Below are positions 2,527-59,282 of a stretch of DNA of 64,000 nucleotides, piece by piece. The translations under genes and the position numbers were made by a program. The stretch is from positions 65,412 through 129,411 of the forward strand of contig JAWSVA010000010.1 of the NCBI GenBank assembly GCA_033852155.1, given 5' to 3'. The notes beneath the pieces are model-generated. The model was not told the origin of the DNA, made no database searches, and worked only from the letters and a program-made list of their open reading frames with translations. Origin of the DNA: Gammaproteobacteria bacterium (GTDB lineage Bacteria; Pseudomonadota; Gammaproteobacteria; QZLD01). Each line of letters starts with the position of its first letter. Position 1 is the stretch's first letter.

Positions 2527-2545
2527 ATTCTAATTTGAATCCTAT

Positions 2546-3622: not shown

Positions 3623-4032
3623 TTTTCTGGCTTATCTTCTACCATTTTTTAATGGTATATAATCACATTATAATGCTGTTAACTATAAGTAAATCCATTG
3701 TATTTTATACGCATCATTCACATTCACTATAGTACGCCAGATTTAATTTGGAGTAGATTTGATATTTCATACTTAATATATTTAAAAACAGATAGATAAA
3801 ACAGATACTCACAGCACCAGCAAAACCAATATTCAGAAGCATCAAGATATTCATGCTGCAAACAATATTCATAAAACATGATCTAGTTAACATTTAAATT
3901 TTTGGTAACTGCGAGAAAAATGATGCAGTTGCAAATATATCTCGTTCCAATGCGCCGTCGTTGCAACGCATACATAATTTTATGCCTGTATCAATACAAT
4001 GAATACGCATTCCAACGAGGAATTTTTATTAT

Positions 4033-7500: not shown

Positions 7501-7794
7501 ACAGTTTAGAGCTGTCTGCCCACCCATTGTTGGCAGCAAAGCATCTGGCTTCTCTTTTTCGATGATCTTTTCAACCACCTTCCATTCAACTGGTTCAATA
7601 TATACAGCATCTGACATCTCTGGGTCTGTCATGATAGTAGCTGGGTTTGAATTGACCAAGATTACGCGGTAACCCTCTTCCTTCAGCGCTCTACAAGCCT
7701 GAGCTCCTGAGTAGTCAAATTCACAAGCCTGACCAATTACGATAGGTCCTGCACCAATAATCAAAATACTTTTAATATCTGTACGTTTTGCCAT
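4585..7794 (-). CDS. carB: carbamoyl-phosphate synthase large subunit
   Basis: 1069 aa with two ATP-grasp halves, an oligomerisation domain and an MGS-like domain. The N-terminus is [23 protein letters not shown]. Confidence 0.96.
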
Positions 7795-7842
7795 GTCTTC
7801 TGTCTTTTCTCTATCGTTGGTGTATTTTATCTTTGCTCAATA

Positions 7843-9000: not shown

Positions 9001-9520
9001 ATTCAGACGTACAAAAACGGGAGGTTAAGCTTGCCTCCCGTGGATTTATGAATTTTGTGTAAGTAACCCAGTTCATTCACAAGATATGTTGAAATTCAGG
9101 TGAATTTTCTCGGTTGGGCACCAAATCTGGGAGTGAATGATACTTGAAACACAGAGATAATTCTATGGCTAATGTAGATAATATTAAAGTATGCTGGGAT
9201 TTTTTAAGTTGCAGAGGAAATTAACCTGCTTATAGCATTAACTGCAGTGGTTTTTAAACCATTCTACCAGTAGTTTTTATCTAGAATTGCACGATTAATA
9301 TATATTGATAAATTTAATTTCATGTCAACCGATGTGGTTTTGATGCGTTACTTATAAGCAATTGTAGGTGTGCAACGAATCAAATGAACAAATCCTGCAT
9401 AAAAATATGCTATACGACAATAATTTAATCTAGAATAGAAACCAAAACATAGCATTTTTATAGGGCAGTTTTTATAGATATCGACCAGAATTTGTCAAGA
9501 TCTGCTCTTGACCGGAGAAA

Positions 9521-10717
9521 GTGATGAAAGGCCGTTTTTTTACCCATTGGATACTCCCGCTATTGATTGCAGTAGGGGCGATTTTTGTTGCTTATTGGTT
9601 TATTGCCATGGCCCCAAAGGCCAAACCAAAGCCCGCTGCGGAGCGCACAGCAACAATTGTCGAAGTTATTAAACCTGAATATGGTAGTTTCGCAGTTGAA
9701 ATTAACACCATGGGCGAAGTAATTCCATCCAAAAGTCTTTTATTGACCTCTAGAGTATCTGGAGAAGTTACCGCGATCTCTCCGAACCTCGAGGCTGGAG
9801 GAATTATTAGCAAAGGCGAACTATTAGCCAAGATCGATGACCGTGATTACCAACTGATTAAACAACAGCGCGAAGCTAATGTTCAAAATGCTAAAAGCGC
9901 GCTGCTTTTAGAGCATGGAAAACAGATAGTTGCAAAAAATGACCTCAAACTTTTAAACAGGGCTAAAAAGTTCAGTAAAATACAGCTGGATTTGGCATTG
10001 CGCAAGCCGCAGCAGCTACAAGCCCAGGCAGAGCTTGCGAAAGCAAAGGCATCACTGAATGAAGCTAATCTGGCGATAGAGCGTACTCGTATTTATGCTC
10101 CGTGGGATGCAATTGTAATTGAGCGCAACATCAGCGTAGGCTCTAACATTAATACCCAGCAATCTGTGGCTTCGTTAATTGATTACAAGCAATACTATAT
10201 CAAGGCTTCTATCCCTGCAGACAAACTGGTCTATCTAAATAGTGGAACCGATGCCAGTAAAGCCATTATCATATCTAAATCCAGCAATAAACCAATAGCA
10301 GCCACCCTGCTGAACATCCTTCCATCCCTAGATAATAAATCACGCTTGGCCCAAGTATTAATCTCTGTAGATGACCCGTTGGGCATTGATAGCGCTATTG
10401 ATGATAATATAAAAAGAAAAGCAAAAACTGACCTTATCGTTAATGACTTTGTACAGGTAAAAGTTGTTGGCATACCGCTTGAGAATATCTTCCGCATTCA
10501 CAGATCTCATGTACGCGATGGCAATACGGCATGGGTTATGCGCGACAAAGCCCTGGTAATCATATCTGCCAAGCCTGTACATGAAGACCGTGATTACATC
10601 TATTCCTATTCCGATATCAAAGCAGACGACCTTTTGGTTATATCCAATCTGGCTACACCCGTTTCCGGCATGAAATTGGCCACTGCAAAAAACCAAGCTG
10701 ATAAGAAGCAAAAATGA
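9521..10717 (+). CDS. RND efflux periplasmic adaptor (HlyD/AcrA family membrane fusion protein)
   Basis: 398 aa with an N-terminal TM anchor and coiled-coil/lipoyl/beta-barrel adaptor layout. Its stop overlaps the start of the downstream RND permease (ATGA coupling). Confidence 0.75.
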   Translation: MMKGRFFTHWILPLLIAVGAIFVAYWFIAMAPKAKPKPAAERTATIVEVIKPEYGSFAVEINTMGEVIPSKSLLLTSRVSGEVTAISPNLEAGGIISKGELLAKIDDRDYQLIKQQREANVQNAKSALLLEHGKQIVAKNDLKLLNRAKKFSKIQLDLALRKPQQLQAQAELAKAKASLNEANLAIERTRIYAPWDAIVIERNISVGSNINTQQSVASLIDYKQYYIKASIPADKLVYLNSGTDASKAIIISKSSNKPIAATLLNILPSLDNKSRLAQVLISVDDPLGIDSAIDDNIKRKAKTDLIVNDFVQVKVVGIPLENIFRIHRSHVRDGNTAWVMRDKALVIISAKPVHEDRDYIYSYSDIKADDLLVISNLATPVSGMKLATAKNQADKKQK

Positions 10718-36106: not shown

Positions 36107-39100
36107 TTATGGAGCTAATATATTTATATCACCAAGGAACATGGTGAACTCTGTTTCCATAAATGGTAATAAGGTTTCTATTTGTTCTGAGTTTCTTGAA
36201 TGTATAGCCTGCTCTAAATTGAAAGAGGCTTGCTGAAACTTATCTGCAGATATAGTGGCTGCAACACCTTTAAGGCTATGACAAAGTCTATGGGCTAATC
36301 CATAATCTTTCTTTTGAAGGTACTCTTTTAGCTTTTCAATACTATCGCCGTAATCATTTTTAAACAGATAACATATCTCAGTAAAAAGCCCCTCATTTCC
36401 AGCCAGCATATCTAGTGTATTATGCACATCAATTGACTGTAAGTTATTCGGGAAATTAGCACTATCAACCTTTTCCTCAATATCTGCTTCAACCAAAATA
36501 GGCTCTGGAACTATTTGAACTCTTCTATCCCATTTTAGAATAAGCTCATAAAGATCTTTAGATTTAACTGGTTTTGATATGTAATCATCCATTCCATTTG
36601 AGATACAGGATTCTCTATCACCTTGCATGGCATTGGCTGTCATAGCAATTATCACTAAGTCTTTAGTAGCAGGCATAGATCTTAATATCTGTGTAGCCTC
36701 TATCCCACCAATTTCTGGCATATGAATATCCATAAAGACGACGTCGTATCTATTTTGTAGCGTTTTTGCAATTGCTTGCTTGCCATCTTCTGCAATATCT
36801 ACAACCGCACCGACTCTTTCTAGCATCTCACGACCAACTTGCTGATTTATTCTATTATCATCGGTTAGAAGAATTCTTATGCCTCTAATCTTTTCAAGAA
36901 TTTCAACTTCGTCATATGCTTTTTCATCATTTACACTAGATTTATAAATTGGCTTAAAGTCATGATTTGGCAGTAAACTTTTACAAACTGAATTGACAAG
37001 ATCTGATATTTTTATCGGCTTGGTAATGATATTAGATATATCTTTAAGTTGATCTTTGGCAATAGAATTATCGTACCCAAAAACAGATAATAACATAATC
37101 TTTGAATCACAAGAGGATCGTAACTCAGCTAGCCTGCAAGAGAAATCTTGGTCTAGCATATCAGCATCAACAAGTATTAAATCATAACCATTTGCAGATG
37201 ATATTTGCTGTAACAGCGATGCGTAATTATCTGTACTATCAGTATAGATACCATGATTTTTTAACGTTTCTTTTAAATAACTAGCTTCATGCTTATTGGT
37301 AGCAGCTATAAGAATATTCTTTTGCAAGATTTGTTCTGAAATCAGGCTAAGACTGTTATATAACCCAATACTGTTTGAGTCAGAGACTTTCATCTCGGTG
37401 GTAAATGTAAACTTACTTCCCTTACCTACTTCACTAGTTGCACTTATATCTCCATTCATCAGTGCTACTAAATGTTTGCAGATACTTAAACCAAGTCCAG
37501 TACCACCAAATTTTCTTGTGGTAGAGCCATCAGCCTGAGTAAATGGGGTAAATAGTCTTGGCAATACCTCTGGCGCGATACCAATACCAGTATCTGAAAC
37601 CATAAACGAAAGGGTAACTAAACCATTTTCAATCTTGGCTATATCTACAGTTATCTGAATTTCACCTTCATCGGTAAATTTGATTGCATTATTTATAATA
37701 TTTATAAGAACCTGACTCAGACGCAAAGGGTCACCAATAACTTGCCCAGGGAGCTTAGAGCTTGGGTTGATAATCATACTGATGTTCTTATCAACTATTC
37801 TGGTAGAAAAGATATCGGATATATGATCAATAACTTCATATATATTGAACTCTGTCTCTTCAATATTTAGCTTACCAGCCTCGATTTTTGAGAAATCGAG
37901 GATGTCATTTATTATCCCCAGCAGAGTCTGTGAAGAAGTGTTAATTTTACCTAGATAATCACGCAATTTTGTGGACATATCACGCTGAAGGGCCAGCTCA
38001 GTAAGTCCAATAATAGCATTCATCGGGGTTCTGATTTCATGGCTCATATTAGCCAAGAATGAGCTTTTAGCATCTGCAGAAGCTTCAGCAGCCTGCATAG
38101 CAATCATTAGAGCTTCATTTTTCTTTCTTTCAGTATCAACCAATTTGTCCTGAGTAATTTTCAACTCAGACAGAGTATTTTCAATCTCATCTTTTTGCTC
38201 AGCAATAGTTGAGTATAGGCCTGCATTGACAATTGCTGTACCAATAAATGATGATAGAAGTTCAAGAAAATTAATATCTTCTCGAGAAAGGTTAACATAC
38301 GATTTAAAACCGCTTATTGAAATAACACCAATAGATTTACCATCTTTATTGATTGGTAAATGGATAATAGATTTCAACCCTTCCAACCGCTCCAACATCA
38401 CTCTATCGTTGTGGTTCATAGGTAGATTCATTACCTGTGGTACATCAGGAAAATATAAATTTTGATTATTTAGATAACACATAGAGTACGAGCCACCTTC
38501 ATAGCTAATATCGTATGGGTTATCCTCCGTAAATTCAGACCATAATCTAGCTTTTTCCTTATACTCTTCCCCTTTGGTATAGGAAGATACCCCGCGCAAC
38601 AGCCCACCCTTTTCAATCAATATCACAACCATATCAAATGGATAGCGGCTTAAAAACTCATCCGAAATCTTTTCGTATATTTTATCAACTGAATTTAGGT
38701 TATTTACTTCATTTACAAAATTAAGAAACTGCGCGCGTTCAGCGATACCGGTTTCTACAATCTGCTCTTTCTGCTTAAGCTCAGAGTATTTAATTGAATT
38801 ATCAATTGGGTCAAAGAACAGCGAAAGTTTTTTGCCTAAATAATCTATAGATTTCTTACTAATAGCCTCGGAACTATTGAATAACATAATAGCACCCAAT
38901 ACTGGGGCGTTATTATCTTCTATATTGGTTATAGGTATGCTAACCATGTTGTGCATTTTCCAGGCCTTAAACCTAGAGCGAGTTGATTCCGAGAATTTTT
39001 CAATATTATCAGCATTGATTGATACAACTCGTTTATTCTGTATTACTGGTGTGTTTTCATCTGTTGGCCCAAGAGAGTAATTAAAATGATGGAAGGTTTT

Positions 39101-39922
39101 CTCTATAGCTTTAAACTCACCAGGCAAACAAACCCTATTACAAGTAAGATACTTTTTAGCTTTATCTAACAGATTAATCGAATAACCATTTACACTTTCA
39201 AGCTTGCCAATCTCACCACCAAGAATCTCCATGATTTCATCTAGTTTGATTGTTCGGCTTATTCTATGAACTATATCAAGTGTTTCCAGCTGCTCTTGCT
39301 TTATATACTCCTGCTCAAATTTATTTTTTACAATCAGAAAATTTGGAGCCAAACTACCTATAAAAAGATAGATCTCTTCACAAATTTCTTTAGTAAGGTT
39401 TAATTGTTTATCAATAGCACCTAGATGTATTACAGCTATGGTCTTACCACCATCAATAATTGGGAGAATCAAATTTTCTTTAATATTAAGCAGCTCAAGA
39501 CTATTACGGTCAACTTCAGGAATATCACTCAGGGACTCAATTGCTTCAGAATTTGCATAAACCCATCTTTTTGATAGTGCGACTGATGCTGATACAGAAA
39601 GCTTCGGGTCCAAAGGTATATCTACAGATACCTTTTTTCGAATATCATCGCTAACTTCATCTTTGGTATAAAAAGTTAAGAACTTAAGGGCATTTTTCTC
39701 TTCATCAATGATTTGCCCAGCAGACATGTTGAATCCATATCTTTTGTGCAATGCATTGAGAATGACATTTAAAACTTCTTCTAAGGAATCAGAGTGTGCA
39801 ATTTCATGAATTAATGAAATTTCGTTTTGCAAAACATCAATATTACCAGGCCCATGGACCAAAGTTCCACTAAATTGATCTAAGCTTACTTCAGCAAATG
39901 ATTGTTTCTGATTATTTTGCAT
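36107..39922 (-). CDS. hybrid sensor histidine kinase: GAF repeats - HisKA - HATPase_c - pseudo-receiver - receiver - HPt
   Basis: 1271 aa with no obvious TM. HisKA H-box (MSHEIRTPMNAIIGL). ATPase G-boxes (DTGIGI, GGTGLGLSICKHLV). A receiver with phospho-Asp context (VVFMDIHMPEIGG) preceded by a degenerate REC-like module. C-terminal HPt (HRLCHSLKGVAATISA). Confidence 0.85.
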   Translation of the reverse strand: MQNNQKQSFAEVSLDQFSGTLVHGPGNIDVLQNEISLIHEIAHSDSLEEVLNVILNALHKRYGFNMSAGQIIDEEKNALKFLTFYTKDEVSDDIRKKVSVDIPLDPKLSVSASVALSKRWVYANSEAIESLSDIPEVDRNSLELLNIKENLILPIIDGGKTIAVIHLGAIDKQLNLTKEICEEIYLFIGSLAPNFLIVKNKFEQEYIKQEQLETLDIVHRISRTIKLDEIMEILGGEIGKLESVNGYSINLLDKAKKYLTCNRVCLPGEFKAIEKTFHHFNYSLGPTDENTPVIQNKRVVSINADNIEKFSESTRSRFKAWKMHNMVSIPITNIEDNNAPVLGAIMLFNSSEAISKKSIDYLGKKLSLFFDPIDNSIKYSELKQKEQIVETGIAERAQFLNFVNEVNNLNSVDKIYEKISDEFLSRYPFDMVVILIEKGGLLRGVSSYTKGEEYKEKARLWSEFTEDNPYDISYEGGSYSMCYLNNQNLYFPDVPQVMNLPMNHNDRVMLERLEGLKSIIHLPINKDGKSIGVISISGFKSYVNLSREDINFLELLSSFIGTAIVNAGLYSTIAEQKDEIENTLSELKITQDKLVDTERKKNEALMIAMQAAEASADAKSSFLANMSHEIRTPMNAIIGLTELALQRDMSTKLRDYLGKINTSSQTLLGIINDILDFSKIEAGKLNIEETEFNIYEVIDHISDIFSTRIVDKNISMIINPSSKLPGQVIGDPLRLSQVLINIINNAIKFTDEGEIQITVDIAKIENGLVTLSFMVSDTGIGIAPEVLPRLFTPFTQADGSTTRKFGGTGLGLSICKHLVALMNGDISATSEVGKGSKFTFTTEMKVSDSNSIGLYNSLSLISEQILQKNILIAATNKHEASYLKETLKNHGIYTDSTDNYASLLQQISSANGYDLILVDADMLDQDFSCRLAELRSSCDSKIMLLSVFGYDNSIAKDQLKDISNIITKPIKISDLVNSVCKSLLPNHDFKPIYKSSVNDEKAYDEVEILEKIRGIRILLTDDNRINQQVGREMLERVGAVVDIAEDGKQAIAKTLQNRYDVVFMDIHMPEIGGIEATQILRSMPATKDLVIIAMTANAMQGDRESCISNGMDDYISKPVKSKDLYELILKWDRRVQIVPEPILVEADIEEKVDSANFPNNLQSIDVHNTLDMLAGNEGLFTEICYLFKNDYGDSIEKLKEYLQKKDYGLAHRLCHSLKGVAATISADKFQQASFNLEQAIHSRNSEQIETLLPFMETEFTMFLGDINILAP

Positions 39923-40389
39923 TTATCTTATTATTATTCTATGTTCGTTTATTTTTAATCGTTTTTATTATTCTAGCAACAGCTACCTACAGATCTAGAT
40001 TAATTATAGATAGTTTAAGTATATAAATCTATTTTGATTGCTTGTTTTGTGAGTCTTATCAACAAAAATAAGTTCAGACTAATATGCATTGTTATTATCT
40101 ATCGGAATAATTTGCGATTTCTTTATCCTCTTTGAAAATCTTGGCTTTTCTTTTTCTCAAACTGTTTTACGAAATCTTTACTAGCTGCTTTTGCAGTATT
40201 CCCTTTTGCCGTTAATGTGCATTAACGGCACTTTAAAAGGTGTCCAGATTTACTGAACCACTACATTTTCTTTGCGTAGAGAGTGGCTTTCATGCGGCTC
40301 CTCTACAATGTTTGTTGTTTGTACTGTTCTGTTTCAGAACTCTTTTGTTTTAAATCGCCCATTTGATTTTCGTTATTTAAACCAATGGT

Positions 40390-40420
40390 GTCAGAGTCAA
40401 TTAATTATATCGACTCTGAC
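40390..40420. terminator. hairpin GTCAGAGTC-N13-GACTCTGAC downstream of the 40432..41112 gene
   Basis: Perfect 9-bp stem with a T-run on the plus side (ATCATTGATTTTT). Sits 12 nt beyond the stop of the minus-strand gene. Same CAGAGTCAAT core as the hairpin at 15674-15709. Confidence 0.4.
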
Positions 40421-40431
40421 ATCATTGATTT

Positions 40432-41112
40432 TTACAGTCCAAAATTCTTCTTTACACCTGAAGCTGTTTTACTAACATCTGCCAATGACGCGCCTAATTT
40501 CAGATCTGGATAACCCATAGTTTTCTCAAAGAAACGAGCCCTTTCTTCATTCTCAATATCAGTTGCAATTTCAATATTAGTTTTAATTGCTGCTTTGAAT
40601 TCATTTGCAAACTTTTGCTGTTCAACTGCTTCACCCTGAAAACTCGTGATTTTATTACCCCACTCACGTTCAAAACTAAAAAGCTGCTTTTTAAGTTTTG
40701 CCGCAGCCTCATGAAATATCCCTACTCCGCTCCGAACATCCATCCAGGTTCTCATAACATTCTGAAATGCAATAAGACCTGCTAACAAAGCGGTAATTTG
40801 AGTGGCAATTGTTGTTGATGCTGCATTGCCATTTAGTGTTGCCAACAGGAATACGGCAACGGGTAATAAAAGTAAAAGCAAAGCACTAACAAAAAAGAAA
40901 AAACGCCTTTTTGCAGTCTCTTTTGCTATCTTATTTTGATACCAAAAAATATTAAGATGCACTTGAGTAATCAGTTCAATAAGATCTTCATCAAACCTTT
41001 TATCATCAAGTCCGATGCCTAGATTATGTTTCATCACCGGAAGGTCAACCAAAGCTTCTGCTGGATTACGCCTTGATGATTTATTTGCCTTTTCGAAGCT
41101 ATATTGTTTCAT
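40432..41112 (-). CDS. hypothetical membrane protein with a central 2-TM hairpin
   Basis: 226 aa with two adjacent hydrophobic helices (FFFFVSALLLLLLPVAVFLLATL, TQITALLAGLIAFQNVM) flanked by charged helical regions. No recognised family. Confidence 0.4.
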   Translation of the reverse strand: MKQYSFEKANKSSRRNPAEALVDLPVMKHNLGIGLDDKRFDEDLIELITQVHLNIFWYQNKIAKETAKRRFFFFVSALLLLLLPVAVFLLATLNGNAASTTIATQITALLAGLIAFQNVMRTWMDVRSGVGIFHEAAAKLKKQLFSFEREWGNKITSFQGEAVEQQKFANEFKAAIKTNIEIATDIENEERARFFEKTMGYPDLKLGASLADVSKTASGVKKNFGL

Positions 41113-41145: not shown

Positions 41146-41430
41146 CTAAACAAACTTATCCAGAAGAGTAACTATAATATCTGCAAACTCTTCTGTATTT
41201 TCGACTATTTTGTTTACCTTGGTATTTTGGTCTTCAGCAGACTTAACAATTTTCATTAACTTTGTTAAACGCTGCAAATCTGCAGGCACCGGAAAAAACT
41301 CAGATATCTCTTCATCTGTCATTCTGGTAACAGAAGATACTTTTGCAGCAAGTTTTGCATCGGTTATGGTTACACTATCATCAATAGCATCATTTAAATC
41401 AGTTTCAAAATTATCCCAATCTATCGGCAT
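41146..41430 (-). CDS. small acidic hypothetical protein
   Basis: 94 aa, Asp/Glu-rich (MPIDWDNFETDLNDAIDDS...). The ORF is co-oriented and closely spaced with the neighbours on both sides. Confidence 0.35.
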   Translation of the reverse strand: MPIDWDNFETDLNDAIDDSVTITDAKLAAKVSSVTRMTDEEISEFFPVPADLQRLTKLMKIVKSAEDQNTKVNKIVENTEEFADIIVTLLDKFV

Positions 41431-41507: not shown

Positions 41508-42170
41508 TTAAAGAGAGTTTTTAAGCTCCCTAATCTTCCCAACATACTCTTCAGCTATTGCAGACTTTTCATCAACTGTCTTAGCGCCATCCAGAAGCTT
41601 AGTTACAATCTCATCAGTTTTATCGATAACTTTTGAGATTTCCTCTTCAGTTACTCCAGCTTTCGCTAATAGTCGATCCCTATTTTCAGCAACTTTAGAC
41701 GCTGATAACAAGAACGATGTAACAGAGTTGTTAATCGCCTTGGCCTGCGCATATTCATTCTTGAGTGAATGCTCAATCTGCCTTTCAAGCTCATCAAGTG
41801 GTCTAATTAGCTCTAATCTTTTTTGATTTATGGTTTCTTGCAGGCTGGTGCCAACTTTCATAAGAAACTTGGTTCTTTGCTTGTTATCATTTTCGCGTAC
41901 TACTGTATTCCAAGCATTGGCTATCTGCGGTCTACGGAAGAACTCATTGGAAAATGTTGGTAGCCATTCATGCTCAATAAAGGTATCAATGTCTTTGCGC
42001 TTTTGTTCAAAGAATCTATTTAAAAGCCTTATATTAGCTTCTTCTAGGCTTTCAATACGTTTACCCAATTCTGATGAAAGAGTTGGGGCTTCAGATGGGA
42101 TGTTTGCGCAACCAGAGAAGCTAAATACAACTATTCCCAAAGCTACAAATCTAAATAATCCTTTTATCAT
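41508..42170 (-). CDS. coiled-coil lipoprotein, function unknown
   Basis: Signal peptide with lipobox (FRFVALGIVVFSFSGC) then a largely helical, heptad-rich sequence. Start placed at the MIKGL Met. Lies 12 nt downstream of the DUF4157 gene. Confidence 0.5.
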   Translation of the reverse strand: MIKGLFRFVALGIVVFSFSGCANIPSEAPTLSSELGKRIESLEEANIRLLNRFFEQKRKDIDTFIEHEWLPTFSNEFFRRPQIANAWNTVVRENDNKQRTKFLMKVGTSLQETINQKRLELIRPLDELERQIEHSLKNEYAQAKAINNSVTSFLLSASKVAENRDRLLAKAGVTEEEISKVIDKTDEIVTKLLDGAKTVDEKSAIAEEYVGKIRELKNSL

Positions 42171-42215
42171 TCTGTTTTCCTTTTTACTACTCACTAATAA
42201 CAATAACCAATTTAT

Positions 42216-44636
42216 TTAAGACTTCCAGTATTTATGCATCCACGCTGATATGGTATCCCACTGCCCCCAGTCGACACCATCATCCATCTCGTCCTTACTA
42301 ATACCATTTTTTCCGCCTAAGTATTCACCATCTAAATTAAGAATCATTTGGCGTACTATATATACAATTGCATCCTCATCATCGTTATCACAGTTGCCAT
42401 CTAAAAGAACGCGTATTATGGCGACCCATTTTTCTTTGGTTAGGTTGTAATACGGTATCGGTTGTACAAGTAGTCCCCGCCACTGGCCAATTTTTGTTAG
42501 CCATCTAGCTGCAACATCATCATTATCTTTTATAATCCAATTGGCTCCAGCATTATTTGCAGGATCTGACTTCAAGGTATACATATAAAGGAAGAAATCC
42601 CAGTTATCCCCCTGAATAGAGTTATCAAACACATCCATGCCAATATCTTTAATCAGCCTCTGGCATACCTCATCACTCTGGTAATAAAGAATCGCTATTA
42701 CAGCAACCTCTTCATCATCCATACATAAACCGTCAACTGTTTCCTCTTCAAACAGGTCATACCAATTATCAGTTGGCTTATTCAATAATGACATAATTAT
42801 ATGTTTTAACGCGCTATAAGGCAGGTATAGAGCATTTATCCTGCTTACATCTATCTTGCCTTTGTCGTTGGTCAGGAATGTCATAATGTCGTCATCGACA
42901 TCAGTTTTCATAAACCCTGGGTCATGCAGGACCTTTTCATAGAATTTGCATGTTTTCTCATATATTTTCTGTTCTACTGGGTCACTCTTTTTCCCAAGAG
43001 CAAGTGTTTGCTCTGTAGTTAGCTCATTCCCCTTTTCATCTTTATGCGCGGCACGCCAGGCATTCATGATTTCTGCCTGTGTTTTTGTTACTTTGCCAGA
43101 TGACGTACTGACCTCTTCATTTTCCACTTTGCCGCCAGTGAACTTATCCATATCGGTTTCCATTGCATGCCAAATTGGCCCTGCAACTGGATCTTTCATA
43201 ATCTTGGGAATGTTTGGACCGGGGTTTGGCATTGGTTTTTCCGCCTTAATAGCAGATGGCTTGACCCCTGTTGCTATAGAATAGATCTCAGCGATTGAGT
43301 TATATGATTCACCACCAACAATCTCAGCATCCTCATTAGTCCCTGTGCCATCACCATGAAACTTATGCGAAGTATTACGGCTATAACGCATATCTATGCC
43401 GGTTTCTAAATCACAGAGGATGTCATGATAGGTTTTAGATCTAAAATCAGGCCCGTCAAATGCTGAATCAAATGCACGCGGGTATTGATGCCCTGATGCG
43501 AAAGTATCCTGCAGAAAATGGAGTGCAAATGCTTCATGAATTAAAGCGTTATGCATTGAGTCTTTTGCTTTGCCTAATTTATTCTCTTTTAACTCACGAT
43601 TTGCAGCTGCAGCATAACCTTTTGCGGTCTTATGATTAGCCTCCCATTCACACTCTGCTAACGGGAAAAAATGGTTCCAGTTAGTTTTGGCTAAAGCAAT
43701 ATACGGAGATACTATTGCTGTAAGGCCTTCGGCTCCATATTGGTCTTTATCCATATCTTGTGCTGTTCTACTGTGGTCTCCTGCATTTTTAGTTGCCCAG
43801 CCAAGACTTTTTCTTTTAGGTTTTACTTGGGTTTCAGTAGTTTGACCTTCGCCATCATCTACCTCTACTTCTACTTCTTCACGAAACTCAATAGAATATT
43901 CATCTCCAAACCCTAGCCCTGAGTGTTCACCCTTAGCTTTGGAGTTTATCTTTTTAAGCCCTTCAAGCAATGTACTTTTATGTTGCACCAGTTTTTGCCC
44001 AGCGATATCTCCATAGCTTTTATGTTCTTTGGCACCCCATTTGCGCAGTGTATTACCAGAATCCTGCTGCATAGTATGCGCAATTTCATGGGTTAATATT
44101 GCCTGTCCTGATTCAGTATTTGGGGCATATTGTCCCTGGCCAAAATATATATCACGTCCGACACTAAATGCCTTTGCATCTACAGCGTTTGCAGCCTCAG
44201 CCGCACCACTACCAGTGTGTACTCTCACATTAGAAAGCGATTGACCGTAATATGATTCATACCCTTGTCTTTGTGAACCAGAAAGTGATGCGCCACTTTG
44301 CTCAAAGCCAAGGTTAATTCCATTGGATGATGAAACTGGAGATGTCTTGAATGGAGCGTTTTTGCCACCAGACATATAACCTGCAGCTGCAGAATCAGCT
44401 TGCTGTTCACTGGGGTCGCCGCTGGAACCAAACTTAAGTTTTCCCTTAGCAGATGATGCATAGAGGATATCTCTTATTTGCTCTTGCCTATCGGCACTGT
44501 TTGACTCTTTGCAAACGACATCATTGCATTTTGCTGGTGATTCTTGTTTTTCAGCTGCGCGTTGTTTCATTAAGTTCTCTAGCTTTGTATCAATTGGCGA
44601 AAGATTTTTCGCCCCTACACAACTCATCATTCCCAC
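42216..44636 (-). CDS. DUF4157 (zincin-like HExxH) domain protein with large uncharacterised C-terminal region; candidate eCIS cargo/toxin
   Basis: 806 aa. Residues ~115-190 (GASLSGSQRQGYESYYGQSLSNVRVHTGSGAAEAANAVDAKAFSVGRDIYFGQGQYAPNTESGQAILTHEIAHTMQQ) match the DUF4157 signature VRVHT...A.AFT.G.DI.F..G.Y.P.T..G..LLAHELTHVVQQ almost position for position. The N-terminal ~100 aa is low-complexity and disordered. The C-terminal ~600 aa matches no known domain. Sits immediately downstream of the eCIS structural genes on the same strand. Confidence 0.8.
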   Translation of the reverse strand: MGMMSCVGAKNLSPIDTKLENLMKQRAAEKQESPAKCNDVVCKESNSADRQEQIRDILYASSAKGKLKFGSSGDPSEQQADSAAAGYMSGGKNAPFKTSPVSSSNGINLGFEQSGASLSGSQRQGYESYYGQSLSNVRVHTGSGAAEAANAVDAKAFSVGRDIYFGQGQYAPNTESGQAILTHEIAHTMQQDSGNTLRKWGAKEHKSYGDIAGQKLVQHKSTLLEGLKKINSKAKGEHSGLGFGDEYSIEFREEVEVEVDDGEGQTTETQVKPKRKSLGWATKNAGDHSRTAQDMDKDQYGAEGLTAIVSPYIALAKTNWNHFFPLAECEWEANHKTAKGYAAAANRELKENKLGKAKDSMHNALIHEAFALHFLQDTFASGHQYPRAFDSAFDGPDFRSKTYHDILCDLETGIDMRYSRNTSHKFHGDGTGTNEDAEIVGGESYNSIAEIYSIATGVKPSAIKAEKPMPNPGPNIPKIMKDPVAGPIWHAMETDMDKFTGGKVENEEVSTSSGKVTKTQAEIMNAWRAAHKDEKGNELTTEQTLALGKKSDPVEQKIYEKTCKFYEKVLHDPGFMKTDVDDDIMTFLTNDKGKIDVSRINALYLPYSALKHIIMSLLNKPTDNWYDLFEEETVDGLCMDDEEVAVIAILYYQSDEVCQRLIKDIGMDVFDNSIQGDNWDFFLYMYTLKSDPANNAGANWIIKDNDDVAARWLTKIGQWRGLLVQPIPYYNLTKEKWVAIIRVLLDGNCDNDDEDAIVYIVRQMILNLDGEYLGGKNGISKDEMDDGVDWGQWDTISAWMHKYWKS

Positions 44637-44644
44637 GAAAGCAA

Positions 44645-44740
44645 GAATCTATTTTTCCCTTCCAATGCTCTGCGTTGGAACGAGGGTTATGATGGAGTTT
44701 TTGATTTATACTTCGACTACGCTCAGTAGACTTAAATCAA
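44645..44740. repeat. intergenic repeat copy (a): TTCCAATGCTCTGCGTTGGAACGAG palindrome plus CTTCGACTACGCTCAG module
   Basis: Shares modules with copies at 53984, 55012, 56575 and 61330. The palindrome module is present in reverse-complement orientation relative to TTCCCACGCAGAGCGTGGGAACGAG. Confidence 0.6.
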
Positions 44741-44760
44741 AAGCTCTCCACACAGATTTA

Positions 44761-47727
44761 TTACTTAAATACCAAAAAGTTTGCGGCTTCTTTCAGCCCT
44801 TTAATAAACTTTTTACTAATAACAGCATAAGGGCTTTGTGCCATATTTGCGGTAAAGATTCCATTACCAACAAATGGGACCATTGCAATCTCTTCAGCAG
44901 TTCCAGCTGTGCTAAATTTATTACCACTCATGGTCAGGTAACCTGCAAACACAGCATTATCCTCTTCATGAATGATATTATCCGTTAAAGCCAAACAATC
45001 TAATGCAGGTAAGTATTGTTTAATTACACCTGTAGCAGGAACTGATGCTGAAGACACCATCCCTTTAATGGAGATAAATTTGCTGTTGGTAATACTCAAA
45101 TCTGCCCCTAGGCTTAGGAATGACTTCATCGTCTGCCTCGCTGTCATTATCTTCTTACGAGCTAGTATATTTATTGCTCTTGGTGTTCCTGAGTTCAGCC
45201 AGATATCTCCATTGATATCAGTTGATCTAATTGTTCCACCAACATGATTATTAAATAAACCTAAACATGCACCAAATTTTTTGTGCCTAATCGACCTGAT
45301 AGCTCTATCCAATGAGCCGATTAAAACAGCTTCCGATGCGTTGGTATTACCTACGTTAGCTATAAACGAATTAAAACTGGTCTTAGGAGATATTCTGGAG
45401 CGTCTAATACGGAAGTTATTTGCCGATAAGCTACTTTCATTCGCAGCAGCTGCAATGTGACTAACCTCATACCCTTCATATAACTCCGGTAGATTGGTTA
45501 CTGCTGTTCCAGCTGAATACCTGACCCATTTGGCTCTAGTATCTGCTGGCATTGCAGTGATTTTTTTAGCTACACTAAATAGCTCTCTCTTGTATGCTGC
45601 TGCATCATCAACTGAGTCAATTGCTAAAAGTTTTTCTATATCGTCAGAGATTGTGTGAACATTTCTTCCTCTTACACGAACCCCAGCACTAAAAATACCT
45701 AAAGGTGCAATTGCCTCTGTCCAGCTTGAGGTCATCGTATTATTGTCCCATAAGATTTGGGTCTCATTCTTAGCTGTTCCGACAACAACCATTGGTTTTG
45801 CTGCAGCTGAAGAAGCAATTCTGGAGAACAAACATCCTTGCGCGGTAATCTTCATCCCTTGCATAAAGATTTGCGATGCGCCTCTTAATTTGAAGGTGAT
45901 ATTTTCAAATATTAATTCATCAGCTTCAAAGTCATTTTTTTCACCTGACATTTCAACTGTAACTGCAGCTGAAGAACTACCGGATATTCTTAGACTGTTG
46001 AATTTAGTCGCTTTTGGATTTTCAGGTACGCTATGAATACCTGGCTGTAAGCATATCCAGATATCTTTCGCGCTTAAATCTGCTTTTAAAGCATCTTTTA
46101 GAGTTTCGAACTGACCACCTTTGCCGACTGTAATTAGGAAATCACTACCGCCACCTCCAGAAGGTTTTTTATTAAGTGCGATTAAAGCATCTTGAACCGT
46201 CTTGATATTAACTGGTGCCAACACCCCCGTTAAACCATTATCAGGTCTGCGTAGGTCTATATTATCTGCATCAAGAGCATCAATATCCTGCTCTATATCA
46301 ACTACAGTTTCCTGTAGACTTTCAAGTGCATCATGCACATTTTTAGCATTGCCATAAATATCAGAAGATAGGTTATCTATCGCTATATCACGCGCTTGAA
46401 TATTGGTTAAACTTGGGAAGTTCAGCTGGCGTTTTTGCTCATCTGTTAACGCCTGGATTTTTCCATTGCTGGCGATAGTAGCGATTAATAGGTAGTTATG
46501 CTTAATACCTTTTGGTAGTACTCCATCTTCGTCATCATCTGTTGCGCTAAGAATGATTCCGCCATCATAGCCATCTCTGACTACAATTTCCCAGTAATCA
46601 CCAACGATTATGTTTTTGTTCTTCAGCTCAACCTGCATCTCATGGTCTTTCAGATGCAAAGTAGCTGTATTAGCATCAACATTTACACTGCCGTGGCTCT
46701 TATTGCTGTTGACTTTTAGTGGTGCAAATCTGTCTTTTGCTGGATAATCACTAGCTTTAATAGCCCAGCTATGGCCAGCTTTAACAAGTGTGCAGCAACC
46801 ATCCCAACGTCTAACATAGTTAAACTTTTTACCAGAATCAGCTTCAACCTTTGTCTTAAGCTCACCACGTTGCAAAGCTAAACTAGCAGAGCTTTCTAGA
46901 TGCACACCGATATGCTTTTCACATGCATCGTTGTAGTGTTCAAAAATCCAATCACCAGTTTCAAAATCTTGTGGTACCGGAATCTCGTTGTTGTCATCAT
47001 CTAAAATCTGATACGCCTCAGCACCATTCTCACATGACCATTTGATTGTCACTTCTGAAGGGCTGGTTGGACTACCTTTGATATCATGCACTTCAACGCG
47101 AAAGATGTAGTTACCCGATTTTTGTACTGAGCTGCTGGCAAATGTGTCTACGTCAAAAGAATCACCTTCCACATCAACCGTTCTGTTTTTTAGTGTTAGT
47201 CGGCTGTTACCTGATGTTGGGTTTATCTTGGTTGATTGCGGATCTAAACCTAGTTTTGCACACTTTATCTGTACCATTCTTTGGGTTCTGGTACATGTGT
47301 CAGCACCAAAGAGAGCGGGATCGAGAAGGTTTTCATCTTCTAAAGAGGTAACAGATCTGTCCCAGATATCTGCATAGATATGCACGCTCTTACTTGGCAG
47401 TTTACCTAACCCTGGTAGATCTAGCTGTTTTTCAAATGAAAATGGCTGATTATCCACATCTGGAGATATCAACTCTGCAGCAACACCATTTACACTTATC
47501 TTACCTGGCTGAATTTTAAAATCACTTCCTTGCGTAGCGATTTTAAGGCCTGAATCTTTTGGTGTTCCGCTACCAATAACAGCTTGTGCTAATTGGTTTA
47601 ATCTACCGTTAACAATATCAACGAACTCATTCCAATCAGCATCGGTAAGCATTCTTCCCTGCTGCTGATATATGCCGCTGTATTGTTTCTCTTCCTGATA
47701 ACTATCTCTTGAAATTTGTGTCTTCAT
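44761..47727 (-). CDS. large eCIS distal protein (putative tail fibre / Afp13-like)
   Basis: 988 aa, last gene of the structural block and after the gpI-like gene, as fibre genes are in P2/Afp. No enzymatic motifs recognised. The call rests on position and size only. Confidence 0.35.
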   Translation of the reverse strand: MKTQISRDSYQEEKQYSGIYQQQGRMLTDADWNEFVDIVNGRLNQLAQAVIGSGTPKDSGLKIATQGSDFKIQPGKISVNGVAAELISPDVDNQPFSFEKQLDLPGLGKLPSKSVHIYADIWDRSVTSLEDENLLDPALFGADTCTRTQRMVQIKCAKLGLDPQSTKINPTSGNSRLTLKNRTVDVEGDSFDVDTFASSSVQKSGNYIFRVEVHDIKGSPTSPSEVTIKWSCENGAEAYQILDDDNNEIPVPQDFETGDWIFEHYNDACEKHIGVHLESSASLALQRGELKTKVEADSGKKFNYVRRWDGCCTLVKAGHSWAIKASDYPAKDRFAPLKVNSNKSHGSVNVDANTATLHLKDHEMQVELKNKNIIVGDYWEIVVRDGYDGGIILSATDDDEDGVLPKGIKHNYLLIATIASNGKIQALTDEQKRQLNFPSLTNIQARDIAIDNLSSDIYGNAKNVHDALESLQETVVDIEQDIDALDADNIDLRRPDNGLTGVLAPVNIKTVQDALIALNKKPSGGGGSDFLITVGKGGQFETLKDALKADLSAKDIWICLQPGIHSVPENPKATKFNSLRISGSSSAAVTVEMSGEKNDFEADELIFENITFKLRGASQIFMQGMKITAQGCLFSRIASSAAAKPMVVVGTAKNETQILWDNNTMTSSWTEAIAPLGIFSAGVRVRGRNVHTISDDIEKLLAIDSVDDAAAYKRELFSVAKKITAMPADTRAKWVRYSAGTAVTNLPELYEGYEVSHIAAAANESSLSANNFRIRRSRISPKTSFNSFIANVGNTNASEAVLIGSLDRAIRSIRHKKFGACLGLFNNHVGGTIRSTDINGDIWLNSGTPRAINILARKKIMTARQTMKSFLSLGADLSITNSKFISIKGMVSSASVPATGVIKQYLPALDCLALTDNIIHEEDNAVFAGYLTMSGNKFSTAGTAEEIAMVPFVGNGIFTANMAQSPYAVISKKFIKGLKEAANFLVFK

Positions 47728-53946: not shown

Positions 53947-53983
53947 TTTTTGAACCTAAATCCTTAGATAAATCTTTTTCATT

Positions 53984-54175
53984 TGGTGGGCATTGCCCAC
54001 CCTACGTTCTGTTACTTCAATCAAGCACACTTCGACTACGCTCAGTGAACTTGTTTTTGTTGGGCTTCGCAAGCTCAGCGCCAACCTACATTCATTACCT
54101 TATTTCCCTTCACTTCGACCTTGGTTTATCTCGAGCGTAGTCGAGAGGCTCAGCGGGCGGAAAATAATCAGCAAT
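53984..54175. repeat. intergenic repeat copy (b): GGTGGGCATTGCCCACC palindrome, CTTCGACTACGCTCAG, CCTACATT and GAGCGTAGTCGAG modules
   Basis: Read directly from the sequence. Fills the 245-bp gap between the spike and gp25 genes. Confidence 0.65.
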
Positions 54176-54992: not shown

Positions 54993-55011
54993 ATACCTTT
55001 CAATTCTATTT

Positions 55012-55185
55012 GGTGGGCAGTGCCCACCCTACATTCATGTGTTTTACCGTATGCATTCCCACGCAGAGCGTGGGAACGAGAAAAAACAAGTCGGCTGAGC
55101 GTAGTCGAAGCCTCTTGTTTTTCAACAAATTCATCCTTATTTTCCTTCACTTCGACTACGCTCAGCGGGCGGAAAATATATAGCA
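55012..55185. repeat. intergenic repeat copy (c): GGTGGGCAGTGCCCACC, CCTACATT and TTCCCACGCAGAGCGTGGGAA palindromes plus a 16-bp inverted pair CTGAGCGTAGTCGAAG / CTTCGACTACGCTCAG
   Basis: Read directly from the sequence. Lies between the hub and spike genes. Confidence 0.65.
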
Positions 55186-56386: not shown

Positions 56387-56574
56387 CGTTTTATCTATAG
56401 GCCTCGATTTGTTTTACCACTTTTACATATTCGGATGTAGCTTTATCAGCAATCCCGCGGCACATACCTATGCCTTTGGCTATAAGCTCTATACATAGCT
56501 TTTTTACCAATCTGAAAAGAATTAATTTTTTAACTTTTTTCATGTTCCTTTGCCTTTTTTGATGTTTTTAAAAC

Positions 56575-56695
56575 AAAGTGGTTTCGACTACGCTCAACCG
56601 ACTTGTTTTTTGGTGCAATGCGCTTCGCTTATTGACACCCTACATTTTCCGTCCTTCAATCTATGCATTCCCACGCAGAGCGTGGGAACGAGAAG
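56575..56695. repeat. intergenic repeat copy (d): GTTTCGACTACGCTCAA, GCTTCGCTTATTGACACCCTACATT and TTCCCACGCAGAGCGTGGGAACGAG
   Basis: Read directly from the sequence. Lies between the LysM and hub genes. Confidence 0.65.
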
Positions 56696-57935: not shown

Positions 57936-59282
57936 TCAATTCAAACCACCCTCTAAATATTCCTTAAGGGGTCCAAGGTCTGAATCAAGTAGCTCTCTGC
58001 CATCTTTTGCCATCTCGCGCCAAACTGCAGTAGCGAGGTGTTTATATTCAATCTGTGTTGCATCAGCGGCTGCAAGATACGCTGCATTTAGTGCTGCATT
58101 CTTGATATTTCCGCCATTAAAATTAGAGATTTTCGCTAAAACTGACAAATCAATTTCACTAGATATCGGAGCCTTTGGTGGCAAGCTTTTGCCCCAAATA
58201 TTCTTACGTGAATTAGCATCAGGGCGCGGAAATTCGACCACAACTTGAAAGCGTCGTAAAAAAGCTGAATCTATATTCTTACGGATATTTGTAGTTAGAA
58301 TGCATGGAGTACTAATTGTCTCCAGGCGTGATAACAGGTGACTTACTTCAAGGTTGGAATAACGATCTTTAGATTCCTTGATATCGCCTCTTTTGCCAAA
58401 CAAACTATCCGCTTCATCAAATAGTAAAACTACATCACGACACTCGGCTGTATCGAAAAGACTATTAAGGTTCTTTTCAGTTTCACCAATATATTTACTC
58501 ACCAAACGCCCTAAATCTACTTTATACAGTGGGCGTCCAATCTCGCTGGCAATGATAGATGCCGCTAGTGTTTTACCTGTTCCAGATGGCCCACTAAAAA
58601 GGGCTATCGGTCCGCCAGATTTTTTACCTTGCCACTGCTCAATTACGGTAGATTTATACTTAATCCAGTTGAGATATTCCTGCAACATCTGAACACGGTC
58701 AGCAGGAAGGATAAGGTCACCCCATGAATACTCTTCATCAACCAGGGTTGCACCAGGAAGTTCGATAGCACTGTTGTCGTTGCCAAGAAACAGCTGTACT
58801 ACACCAGGCATCAAACGTAGAGGAGAATAAAGCTCAAACTCCTCATGCTTTATCAGGTTCTCATTTAGCAAGCTTGAGCCGCGCTCAAACACTTTGTAGA
58901 ACTCACCAAGCACTCTCAAATCGATGCAAAGTAGATCTATCAATAATGCTGCAGATGGAAAGTTAGAATTGGTTGATTGCAATCTTTGATATGCCCAACC
59001 CACAGCTGGGTCAAGCTCTGGGGCCAACATGCACGCTAGAACATCGGCCTCCATTAATGACAGTTCAAGTTTACATATACTTTCCCAAAATGGCTGATTG
59101 TTCCTCAGCGAGAAAATCTTATTCTGAACTGCACTTAGTTTTTCGTATTCACTGTTATCTACCGTACCAGCCTTACGGCTTGTCTCTAGAATCGAGCAAA
59201 GAATACGTACCCTTTCACACTCAAGCTCGAGTGTAGCCAGATCGTTATCTTTAAACTCATCTAAAGCAGTGGCTAACTTCAT
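57936..59282 (-). CDS. AAA+ ATPase (eCIS Afp15/Pvc15-like, single AAA module)
   Basis: 448 aa with Walker A (GPSGTGKTLAASIIA), Walker B (VLLFDEADSLF) and an arginine-finger region. The N-terminal ~200 aa is non-ATPase. Embedded in the tail-like cluster. Confidence 0.8.
   Translation of the reverse strand: MKLATALDEFKDNDLATLELECERVRILCSILETSRKAGTVDNSEYEKLSAVQNKIFSLRNNQPFWESICKLELSLMEADVLACMLAPELDPAVGWAYQRLQSTNSNFPSAALLIDLLCIDLRVLGEFYKVFERGSSLLNENLIKHEEFELYSPLRLMPGVVQLFLGNDNSAIELPGATLVDEEYSWGDLILPADRVQMLQEYLNWIKYKSTVIEQWQGKKSGGPIALFSGPSGTGKTLAASIIASEIGRPLYKVDLGRLVSKYIGETEKNLNSLFDTAECRDVVLLFDEADSLFGKRGDIKESKDRYSNLEVSHLLSRLETISTPCILTTNIRKNIDSAFLRRFQVVVEFPRPDANSRKNIWGKSLPPKAPISSEIDLSVLAKISNFNGGNIKNAALNAAYLAAADATQIEYKHLATAVWREMAKDGRELLDSDLGPLKEYLEGGLN

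Follow-up and report, generated by a model that had tools for sequence, protein, structure and literature searches.

DUF4157 (PF13699, now named eCIS_core and also PVC-metallopeptidase) is found in the eCIS loci of 13 phyla and has been labelled a core domain (PMC8213781). Roughly one in two predicted eCIS toxins carries it (PMC11297309), and its role is still called unknown in the literature from 2021 to 2026 (PMC8213781, PMC11297309, bioRxiv 10.64898/2026.05.27.728243). Among the described systems, the AlgoCIS cargos Cgo1 and Cgo2 are built from a leader, DUF4157 and a variable CTD and are encoded in an eCIS cluster with an AAA+ loader. Experiments place both in the tube lumen and show that they are not loaded without their NTD (PMC8894135; bioRxiv 10.64898/2026.05.27.728243). 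DUF4157-fused EATs, such as the transglutaminase EAT14 and the deaminase EAT11, have an N-terminal DUF4157 followed by a toxin domain and are encoded at the 3' side of the operon; 983 of 1130 predicted DUF4157 EATs are without an annotated C-terminal domain (Geller 2021, Danov 2024). The PVC payloads Pnf and Pdp1 are encoded downstream of the structural genes as well, with a leader that directs loading through the Pvc15 ATPase, but they do not carry DUF4157 (bioRxiv 10.64898/2026.05.27.728243). Danov et al. proposed a chaperone role for the domain, in cis or in trans. PMC11297309, citing Xu et al. 2022, describes the toxicity of Cgo1 in E. coli as independent of the HExxH motifs, and AlgoCIS cargo loading does not require DUF4157 (bioRxiv 10.64898/2026.05.27.728243); therefore a protease role of DUF4157 is either not general or not obligatory. 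A literature search for cleavage or autoprocessing by DUF4157 yielded no experimental report of proteolysis.

We analysed a window of 64,000 nucleotides from a gammaproteobacterial assembly (GCA_033852155.1, contig JAWSVA010000010.1, positions 65,412 to 129,411), in which the genes upstream of a DUF4157 cargo gene form a real eCIS cluster. Pfam and NCBIfam identify the sheath, a gp19 tube, a Pvc16_N cap, an AAA+/WHD ATPase, CIS_tube, a Phage_base_V spike and gp25, besides TIGR02243-like baseplate proteins and a DUF6519/DUF4815-like protein of 988 aa. The gene order of PVC and Afp runs from afp1 to afp16; the cluster in the window differs from it in that the ATPase and the cap lie in the middle. 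The AAA+ ATPase with its winged-helix domain (57936..59282, minus strand; Pfam AAA E=2.9e-27, WHD E=2.6e-9) is a candidate cargo loader of the Pvc15/Alg15 type, and the same architecture adjoins the PLC-like gene in a related locus (L015).

The cargo gene (42216..44636, minus strand) lies at the 3' end of the eCIS operon and shares its orientation. An initial annotation made from the letters of the window had described it as an open reading frame of 806 aa, co-oriented with the last structural gene and 124 bp past it. The ORF list contains this frame, which starts with GTG at 44636, and the distance holds for the GTG start, as the stop codon of the 988-aa gene lies at 44761. The position of M23 is the start in 10 of the 11 closest homologs, and the gene call in an 87%-identical locus (L016) begins there too, so the likely start is ATG 44570, which gives a protein of 784 aa and a gap of 190 bp (residue numbers here are those of the GTG frame). 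The intergenic gap (44637..44760) contains repeated hairpin-forming elements that recur in the other intergenic gaps of the operon, in agreement with the structured repeat noted initially, and at the RNA level its folding is better than that of shuffled sequence (z=-3.18). No terminator-like site was found between the 988-aa gene and the cargo gene. A strong terminator-like hairpin with a 13-bp stem (40389..40421, minus strand) ends the operon tail, only beyond three small genes located 3' of the cargo gene. The one directly downstream (41508..42203, minus strand) encodes a lipoprotein-like protein of 231 aa with a lipobox-like sequence ending in FSFSGC; it has no family match in Pfam or NCBIfam, is conserved by synteny in two related loci (L001 and L016) and is a candidate accessory or immunity gene. 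It is followed by a 94-aa ORF (41146..41430, minus strand), conserved in the same two loci, and by a 226-aa ORF with two TM segments (40432..41112, minus strand) which resembles SLATT/DUF4231 weakly (Pfam DUF4231 E=0.0019, NCBIfam SLATT_1 E=0.001). In four loci (L001, L002, L003 and L016) the latter is kept directly behind either the cargo gene or the two small genes next to it.

Our analysis of the cargo protein is computational throughout. Its nearest relatives are encoded in MAGs of Gammaproteobacteria, and the wider family comprises about 1,170 uncharacterised clusters at E<=1e-3; among its distant members that were examined, the majority look secreted. From the N-terminus, residues 23-117 (44286..44570, minus strand) form a leader rich in S, A, G, K and Q, which is 19% hydrophobic and poorly conserved apart from the short motifs IRDIL and KLKFGSSGDPSEQQADSAAAGYM. 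These motifs recur in other DUF4157 cargos of L001 and across the family. Disorder of the leader is plausible, and a charge-hydropathy score of the FoldIndex type does not separate it from the folded domains. By analogy with AlgoCIS, where the NTD is needed for cargo loading (bioRxiv 10.64898/2026.05.27.728243), the leader is a candidate loading signal. The likeness to PVC-effector leaders proposed earlier can be kept as an analogy only, because the PVC payloads are without DUF4157.

DUF4157 itself spans residues 118-194 (44055..44285, minus strand). The signature had been read directly from the translation, and the HMM search with PF13699 bears it out with E=2e-25 and 89.2 bits against a cut-off of 22, covering profile positions 2-78 of 79. 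The HExxH metallopeptidase motif, H183-E-I-A-H187 (44076..44090, minus strand), is intact, aligns across the DUF4157 domains of the family and is retained in every copy. The cargo is the sole DUF4157 protein of the window. Close relatives encode one to three additional DUF4157 genes with differing C-terminal domains, and the sister cargos of L001, L002 and L016 have DUF4157 in common but not the CTD, which is a polymorphic-toxin pattern. DUF4157 is present in 9 of 10 sampled closer relatives. Members without the domain keep the junction described below, and a separate DUF4157 gene is located nearby in three of the four with adequate contigs; within 10 kb of one such relative (L014) there are no eCIS genes and no DUF4157. 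Taken together, the intact HExxH in PF13699, the co-oriented 3' position, the missing terminator, the AAA+ ATPase and the AlgoCIS-like architecture support the reading as a payload gene, with which all computationally checkable features fit.

According to the initial annotation the remaining C-terminal region of about 600 aa matched no recognisable domain. This stands for Pfam and NCBIfam: no Pfam family besides PF13699 was found at E<=1 (Peptidase_M91 at E=1.6 is at noise level), NCBIfam gave nothing for the protein, and all PDB sequences, searched with the family profile, yielded only a chance match to Maelstrom (E=0.34). It no longer holds for the region as such, which can now be divided into a PLC/P1-like domain and an alpha-solenoid. 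Residues 200-520 (43077..44039, minus strand) correspond to a domain resembling zinc-dependent PLC and S1/P1 nucleases, with a metal-binding motif H-x3-D-x5-H, H373-F-L-Q-D377-T-F-A-S-G-H383 (43488..43520, minus strand), that is invariant in 34 of 34 sequences. The assignment was predicted from this motif ahead of any modelling. In hhalign the family aligns with the PLC family profile (Prob 70.8, E=3.8e-5), pairing H373/D377/H383 with PLC H118/D122/H128 and H322 with H69; H373 and D377 are also aligned to P1 H116/D120. The positive control, PLC against P1 nuclease, reached a similar score (Prob 73.1, E=3.1e-5). Against single PLC and P1 sequences the right motif is aligned, at scores that are too weak (P=0.009 and 0.27). 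The AF2 model of the domain has a pLDDT of 90 and shows an all-helical fold that is superimposable on PLC and P1 nuclease. A Foldseek search against the PDB ranked PLC/alpha-toxin first, without reaching significance (E>=0.45, TM<=0.24), and is hence not used as support.

Nine candidate metal ligands appear in the right order. W200, H205, D287, H322, H373, D377, H383, H404 and D405 are invariant down to about 26% identity and C408 is found in 33 of 34 sequences, while the alignment supports only H322, H373, D377 and H383; the equivalences of D287 and H404/C408 rest on order and invariance and not on confident alignment. C408 in place of a Glu/Asp ligand would be unusual. Seven of the 34 family members match PF00882 on their own (best E=5.9e-4), as does P0054, with about 15-17 bits where shown and thus below the gathering threshold of 26.8 bits, and the window protein has no match to PF00882 at E<=1. 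We therefore do not file it as a member of PF00882 but as a separate branch of the superfamily; from the profile alignments and the model, the domain probably represents a branch of the phospholipase C / S1-P1 nuclease superfamily that is new and without annotation. Compared with clostridial alpha-toxin and Bacillus cereus PC-PLC (PF00882), its insertions are large and include a beta-hairpin as well as extra helices, the spacing from W to His is 5 and not 13, a Cys stands at the place of Glu146, and there is no PLAT/C2-like domain. From the S1/P1 nucleases (PF02265; P1 1ak0, SmNuc1 8qjl) it differs by a weaker profile similarity (E=0.058) and a different C-terminal half. In a literature search, no paper linked DUF4157 with 'phospholipase C'. 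A match of the C-terminal region to a housekeeping enzyme family would have spoken against a toxin; what it resembles is a toxin-type hydrolase superfamily (alpha-toxin, PC-PLC, S1/P1 nuclease). We rejected a housekeeping enzyme on account of the fold family, the place of the gene in the operon and the polymorphic sister cargos.

The enzyme domain is followed by a variable linker (residues 521-574; 42915..43076, minus strand), which has the lowest conservation of any region and pLDDT values of 52-70 over the first ~60 residues of the second model. Residues 575-806 (42219..42914, minus strand) make up an alpha-solenoid with internal repeats of the type G-x-C-x2-DDE-x-A-(I/V)-x2-I(L/V), modelled as stacked helical hairpin repeats in a generic fold of the HEAT/ARM type. 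It probably binds the target or regulates the enzyme.

Enzymes of the PLC/P1 superfamily complete their trinuclear metal site with the alpha-amino group of a Trp that is the N-terminus of the mature protein. In Listeria LmPC-PLC one residue added before W1 abolishes activity, and the propeptide is removed by Mpl (PMC10576769). The corresponding Trp of the window protein, W200, is internal and lies in a junction, L197-R-K199 | W200-G-A-K-E204-H205 (44022..44048, minus strand), that would be the maturation site. Across the family P1 is R or K in 30 of 31 sequences, P3 is I, L or V, and W, E and H are invariant; the [ILV]-x-[RK] motif precedes the Trp even where DUF4157 is absent. W200 follows the second His of HExxH by 13 residues. 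HExxH lies upstream of the internal Trp in 52 of 61 proteins, that is in all that are not DUF4157-less, with a spacing fixed at 11-13 residues in 18 of these 52. Among the distant W-x3-E-H relatives, the Trp stands directly after a predicted Sec signal peptide with an AxA site in 34 of 47, and in these secreted non-eCIS proteins it is accordingly predicted to become the mature N-terminus, as in PLC. These outlying relatives carry no Pfam annotation at all; they thus provide no bridge to a named family and are informative only through their signal peptides. Unrelated DUF4157 cargos, too, have motifs of the h-Q-R type at a distance of 8-25 residues past HExxH, which hints that cleavage after DUF4157 could be a general rule.

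We consider it somewhat better than even (about 0.55) that the gene encodes an eCIS cargo pro-toxin, consisting of leader, DUF4157, zinc phosphodiesterase domain and alpha-solenoid, which is activated by cleavage between K199 and W200. The leader would direct loading into the tube by the AAA+ ATPase of the cluster. As the superfamily needs the alpha-amino group of the Trp at the metal site, the full-length cargo, with its Trp at residue 200, is expected to be inactive, and the cut between K199 and W200 would activate the enzyme. With the scissile bond only 13 residues past HExxH, the best candidate for the protease is DUF4157, cutting its own molecule or another one, much as Mpl matures the Listeria PC-PLC. 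A toxin activated after delivery would do no harm to the producer, which could explain the absence of a clear immunity gene. The more specific proposal, that DUF4157 is a built-in maturation protease which cuts past hydrophobic-x-Arg/Lys, either in the chain that it belongs to or, in trans, in a cargo nearby, so that a zymogen is armed post-delivery, is tentative and in our estimate falls short of even odds; if true, it would also account for the lack of immunity genes for many eCIS toxins. Compared with the Listeria monocytogenes pair PlcB/Mpl, in which Mpl is a separate, secreted, thermolysin-like enzyme, the propeptide has 26 aa and export is by Sec, the putative protease of the window protein is fused in cis and is a DUF4157, delivery is proposed to occur by a contractile particle, and identity is only ~11-16%. 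Similarity to Cgo1/Cgo2 is not detectable beyond DUF4157: the CTD of the window protein combines a PLC/P1-like domain with a solenoid, only its family has the Trp junction logic, and Cgo1 is toxic without need of HExxH. Relative to the EATs mentioned above, the toxin domain belongs to another enzyme class, whose chemistry demands an exact N-terminus.

With architecture and delivery unchanged, the toxin could instead be a nuclease or nucleotidase of the S1/P1 type, degrading nucleic acids in the cytoplasm of the target. We regard this as unlikely, given that the sub-threshold Pfam matches all fall on PF00882 and never on PF02265, for which none of the 34 members has a match even at E<=10. The hhalign values point the same way (3.8e-5 for PLC against 0.058 for S1/P1), to be read with the S1/P1 profile being the less diverse of the two, and the peptidoglycan-binding OmpA or SH3 modules that some relatives add point to the cell envelope. 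A phospholipid substrate is in our estimate about twice as probable as nucleic acid.

It is rather doubtful that there is no maturation cut at all, with DUF4157 as a chaperone/adaptor or as a protease toxin in its own right and the PLC-like domain working or binding intact, E204 or other residues replacing the amine. The chaperone proposal of Danov et al., the HExxH-independent toxicity of Cgo1 as cited in PMC11297309, loading without DUF4157 and the lack of direct evidence for DUF4157 proteolysis in the literature searched would all agree with it, as would the invariance of E204 next to H205. Against it stand the signal-peptidase site exactly before the equivalent Trp in secreted relatives, the conservation of [ILV]-x-[RK] before the Trp even in proteins without DUF4157, the intact HExxH in all DUF4157 copies of the family, and the inactivation of LmPC-PLC by a single extra N-terminal residue (PMC10576769). 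The invariant E204 might take over from the free amine, and no cut would then be needed. That the protein is a structural or assembly component of the particle and not an injected effector would suit the core-domain label, the spread of DUF4157 over 13 phyla (PMC8213781) and the single DUF4157 protein of the window, but is very improbable: AlgoCIS particles assemble without Cgo1/Cgo2, the tubes being merely empty (PMC8894135), close relatives carry further DUF4157 genes with different CTDs, and the CTD is a hydrolase fold that occurs also in secreted non-eCIS proteins. We rejected this structural reading on these three grounds.

Returning to the pro-toxin, the family in the window offers an unusually clean test, as an enzyme dependent on an N-terminal Trp carries this Trp at a fixed, conserved site just after DUF4157, and cleavage, HExxH dependence and gain of activity are all readable by standard assays. 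Most DUF4157 cargos are without an annotated effector domain, and the CTD of the window protein is now assigned computationally, by which the eCIS toxin repertoire would gain a predicted zinc PLC/P1-like enzyme class. If the proposal is true, the mechanism of DUF4157 would be that of a pro-toxin maturation protease, which would explain how producers tolerate toxins without immunity and would provide a payload design rule for engineered eCIS, namely scar-free release of cargo with a defined N-terminus.

The open reading frame at 42216..44636 (minus strand) encodes, as first described, 806 aa counted from its GTG codon, and its product is the sole DUF4157 protein of the window. The DUF4157 signature that the initial annotation had read from the translation was confirmed by the HMM search it proposed: residues 118-194 match PF13699 (the former DUF4157, since renamed 'eCIS core domain') with E=2e-25 and 89.2 bits against a cut-off of 22 bits, and the HExxH motif occupies residues 183-187. 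The C-terminal ~600 aa were also rightly described as lacking a library assignment. Besides PF13699, Pfam was empty at E<=1 and NCBIfam was empty, and a sequence search of solved structures with the whole-family profile gave no match. The equivalent of M23 is the start in 10 of the 11 closest homologs and in the gene call of the 87%-identical locus L016; ATG 44570 is therefore the probable start, which shortens the protein to 784 aa and widens the gap to the upstream gene to 190 bp. Residue numbers below count from GTG 44636.

Family matches identify the same-strand genes upstream as a genuine extracellular contractile injection system (eCIS): sheath, gp19-type tube, Pvc16_N cap, CIS_tube, Phage_base_V spike, gp25, a winged-helix-bearing AAA+ ATPase, two TIGR02243-like baseplate proteins and a Tail_P2_I-like protein. 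The last eCIS gene before the cargo gene (44761-47727, minus strand) encodes a 988-aa DUF6519/DUF4815-like protein, probably a tail-fibre or receptor-binding protein, in which only residues 1-85 match these families and the remainder is mostly without annotation. It is separated from the GTG by the 124 bp initially noted, and this gap does hold a structured repeat, in the form of repeated hairpin-forming elements; shuffled versions of the gap fold less well (z=-3.18 for the real sequence). The same elements are found in further gaps of the operon. A mosaic of short hairpin-forming elements fills several eCIS gaps, with repeat-bearing stretches at 44654-44686 and 44710-44739 in the gap before the cargo gene and at 53981-54058, 55008-55185 and 56562-56694 elsewhere. 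Among the repeat types are the 17-nt ACTTCGACTACGCTCAG, present in four direct copies and once inverted, a palindrome of the TTCCCACGCAGAGCGTGGGAACGAG type, and ATTTGGTGGGCA(T/G)TGCCCACCCTAC. They may be REP-like, or else serve as signals for RNA processing or stability between cistrons.

No terminator-like site was found between the eCIS structural genes and the cargo gene, and a terminator-like hairpin with a 13-bp stem lies at 40421-40389, beyond the third small ORF downstream; the cargo gene and these three ORFs thus make up the operon's 3' tail. The three ORFs, all on the minus strand, encode a lipoprotein-like protein of 231 aa (41508-42203) and one of 94 aa (41146-41430), both also present in the related loci L001 and L016, and a third protein of 226 aa with two TM segments and a weak resemblance to SLATT/DUF4231 (40432-41112), which is kept downstream of the cargo gene in L001-L003 and L016. 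All three are candidate genes for immunity, holin-like release or an accessory function. Past the small ORFs, close relatives continue with one to three more DUF4157 genes that differ in their C-terminal regions, a polymorphic cargo array (L001 14209-20975; L002 13107-15221; L016 7395-13879); in the window the array is absent and a hybrid histidine kinase (36107-39922) stands there instead.

An alignment of the window protein with 33 homologs (26-90% identity) revealed invariant or near-invariant polar residues W200, E204, H205, D287, N319, H322, H373, D377, H383, H404, D405, C408 and D429. The H-x3-D-x5-H spacing and a Trp closely before a His suggested the superfamily of zinc-dependent phospholipase C (PLC) and S1-P1 nucleases, an idea put on record ahead of any structure modelling. 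The structure prediction proposed at the outset gave, with the family alignment as input, a confident AlphaFold2 model of residues 196-530 (pLDDT 90, pTM 0.91). In the proposed Foldseek search the PLC/P1 family was top-ranked without reaching significance (E>=0.45, TM<=0.24). PF00882 (Zn_dep_PLPC) was matched below threshold by 7 of the 34 family members individually (best E=5.9e-4) and likewise by the homolog P0054, while the window protein itself reached no PF00882 score. For profile-profile comparison, PLC and P1 query sequences were checked against PDB 1ah7 and 1ak0 and family members were then gathered. The new domain matched the PLC family with Prob 70.8% and E=3.8e-5; HFLQD pairs with HYLGD, equating H373/D377 with H118/D122, and in the relaxed alignment H128 lies opposite H383 and H69 opposite H322. 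PLC and P1 nuclease, accepted remote homologs with a common trinuclear zinc site, scored Prob 73.1% and E=3.1e-5 in the same set-up, so the distance from the new domain to PLC roughly equals that between PLC and P1. Against the P1 profile, which is less diverse than the PLC profile, E was 0.058. From profiles and model we judge a PLC/P1-like domain probable (roughly 0.85) and conclude that residues ~200-520 represent a separate, so far unannotated branch of the superfamily outside PF00882 and PF02265.

An exhaustive search of 1.84 billion representative proteins with an HMM of this domain alone yielded 68 clusters at E<=1e-30, 175 at E<=1e-10 and 1,172 at E<=1e-3. Among 185,579 species genomes relatives are encoded at only 13 loci, in hosts scattered over Gammaproteobacteria, Bacillota, Desulfobacterales, Anaerolineae, Thermoflexales, Myxococcota (including Plesiocystis pacifica SIR-1) and one Methanosarcinales archaeon. 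DUF4157 lies N-terminal to the PLC-like domain in 9 of 10 sampled closer relatives, some of which carry extra OmpA, bacterial SH3 or Peptidase_C39-like modules. eCIS genes were detected beside relatives at L001-L004, L006, L008 and L015, and synteny with the window extends to the three Gammaproteobacteria MAG loci and L016. The distant relatives P0102-P0177 form a large family of 400-600 aa, most with a predicted Sec signal peptide, having in common the metal-site core and a W-x3-E-H start after the signal peptide; ten sampled members gave no Pfam match, and the Gly/aromatic-rich C-terminal halves of several could be membrane beta-barrels.

The invariant Trp of the eCIS-type proteins occupies an internal position, and conservation extends to the residues before it, with the consensus [ILV]-x-[RK] | W-x3-E-H-x2-[FY]-G (P3 is I/L/V; 30 of 31 sequences have R/K at P1). 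Among 61 proteins whose Trp is internal, HExxH precedes it in 52, and in 18 of these 52, the window protein among them, the Trp follows the second His at a fixed 11-13 residues. In the distant relatives W-x3-E-H comes right after the AxA site of a classical Sec signal peptide (34 of 47 motif carriers by a strict test; AAA|WKDGEH, ANA|WSWSEH, ARA|WVYVEH), and signal peptidase is predicted to make Trp the mature N-terminus there, as it is in alpha-toxin, PLC and P1 nuclease. Trp1 of the PLC/P1 superfamily coordinates metal through its alpha-amino group. In Listeria PC-PLC, which is synthesised as an inactive proenzyme and loses its 26-residue propeptide to the metalloprotease Mpl, one residue added N-terminal to W1 abolishes activity (PMC10576769). 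Family alignment, linkers, the unrelated DUF4157 proteins P0035-P0045 and the L001/L015/L016 cargos also contain two short, apparently recurrent motifs: K-L-x-[IV]-G-x3-D-x-[YF]-E-x-E-A-D-x-[VA]-A, N- or C-terminal to DUF4157 domains, and hydrophobic-Q-R/T-K/R/D, 8-25 residues past HExxH. They could serve in recognition, inhibition or cleavage.

The proposed mechanism starts from what the analysis shows: which domains the protein has, its place in an eCIS operon, the conserved junction and the likewise placed signal-peptidase site of the secreted relatives. The window protein has the leader - DUF4157 - C-terminal domain architecture of the AlgoCIS cargos Cgo1 and Cgo2, which occupy the tube lumen and require their N-terminal domain for loading (PMC8894135; bioRxiv 10.64898/2026.05.27.728243). 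By analogy, the AAA+ ATPase of the cluster would load it into the tube via its N-terminal leader, and we consider it a likely eCIS cargo. Because its W200 lies inside the chain, the full-length protein would be an inactive zymogen, and cleavage at K199|W200 would arm the enzyme; we lean towards such a maturation cut. It would take place once the cargo is delivered, a timing that would shield the producer.

That the adjacent DUF4157 peptidase makes this cut is a tentative proposal, somewhat short of an even chance. In its favour, the junction is retained in family members without DUF4157, and three of four such members on adequately long contigs have a separate DUF4157 gene nearby (L006, L012, L015). 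At L008 a DUF4157 ORF (580-1554) directly precedes and overlaps the PLC-like ORF (1509-3626) in a different frame, which could be a natural two-gene split or a frameshift or assembly error. Against it, L014 has neither DUF4157 nor eCIS genes within 10 kb, HExxH is not required for Cgo1 toxicity (cited in PMC11297309), loading proceeds without DUF4157 (bioRxiv 10.64898/2026.05.27.728243), and our literature search found no experimental evidence of DUF4157 proteolysis. The DUF4157-less L014 member (P0020, Anaerolineae; 4626-7247, minus strand) adjoins a divergent NB-ARC/TPR STAND NTPase (7496-10033, plus strand), a neighbourhood hinting that the enzyme domain also serves in a conflict system of another type.

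A DUF4157 protein closing an eCIS operon is of an already known kind: ~51% of predicted eCIS toxins contain DUF4157, and 983 of these 1,130 are without an annotated effector domain (PMC11297309). What is new is, first, the identification of the effector domain as a zinc enzyme of PLC/P1-like type, for whose combination with DUF4157 our literature search found no paper; second, the realisation that PLC/P1-type chemistry requires an exact N-terminus; and third, comparative evidence that the eCIS lineage swapped the signal-peptidase site for a conserved one directly beside DUF4157. These three points jointly make the question of DUF4157 function directly testable by experiment.
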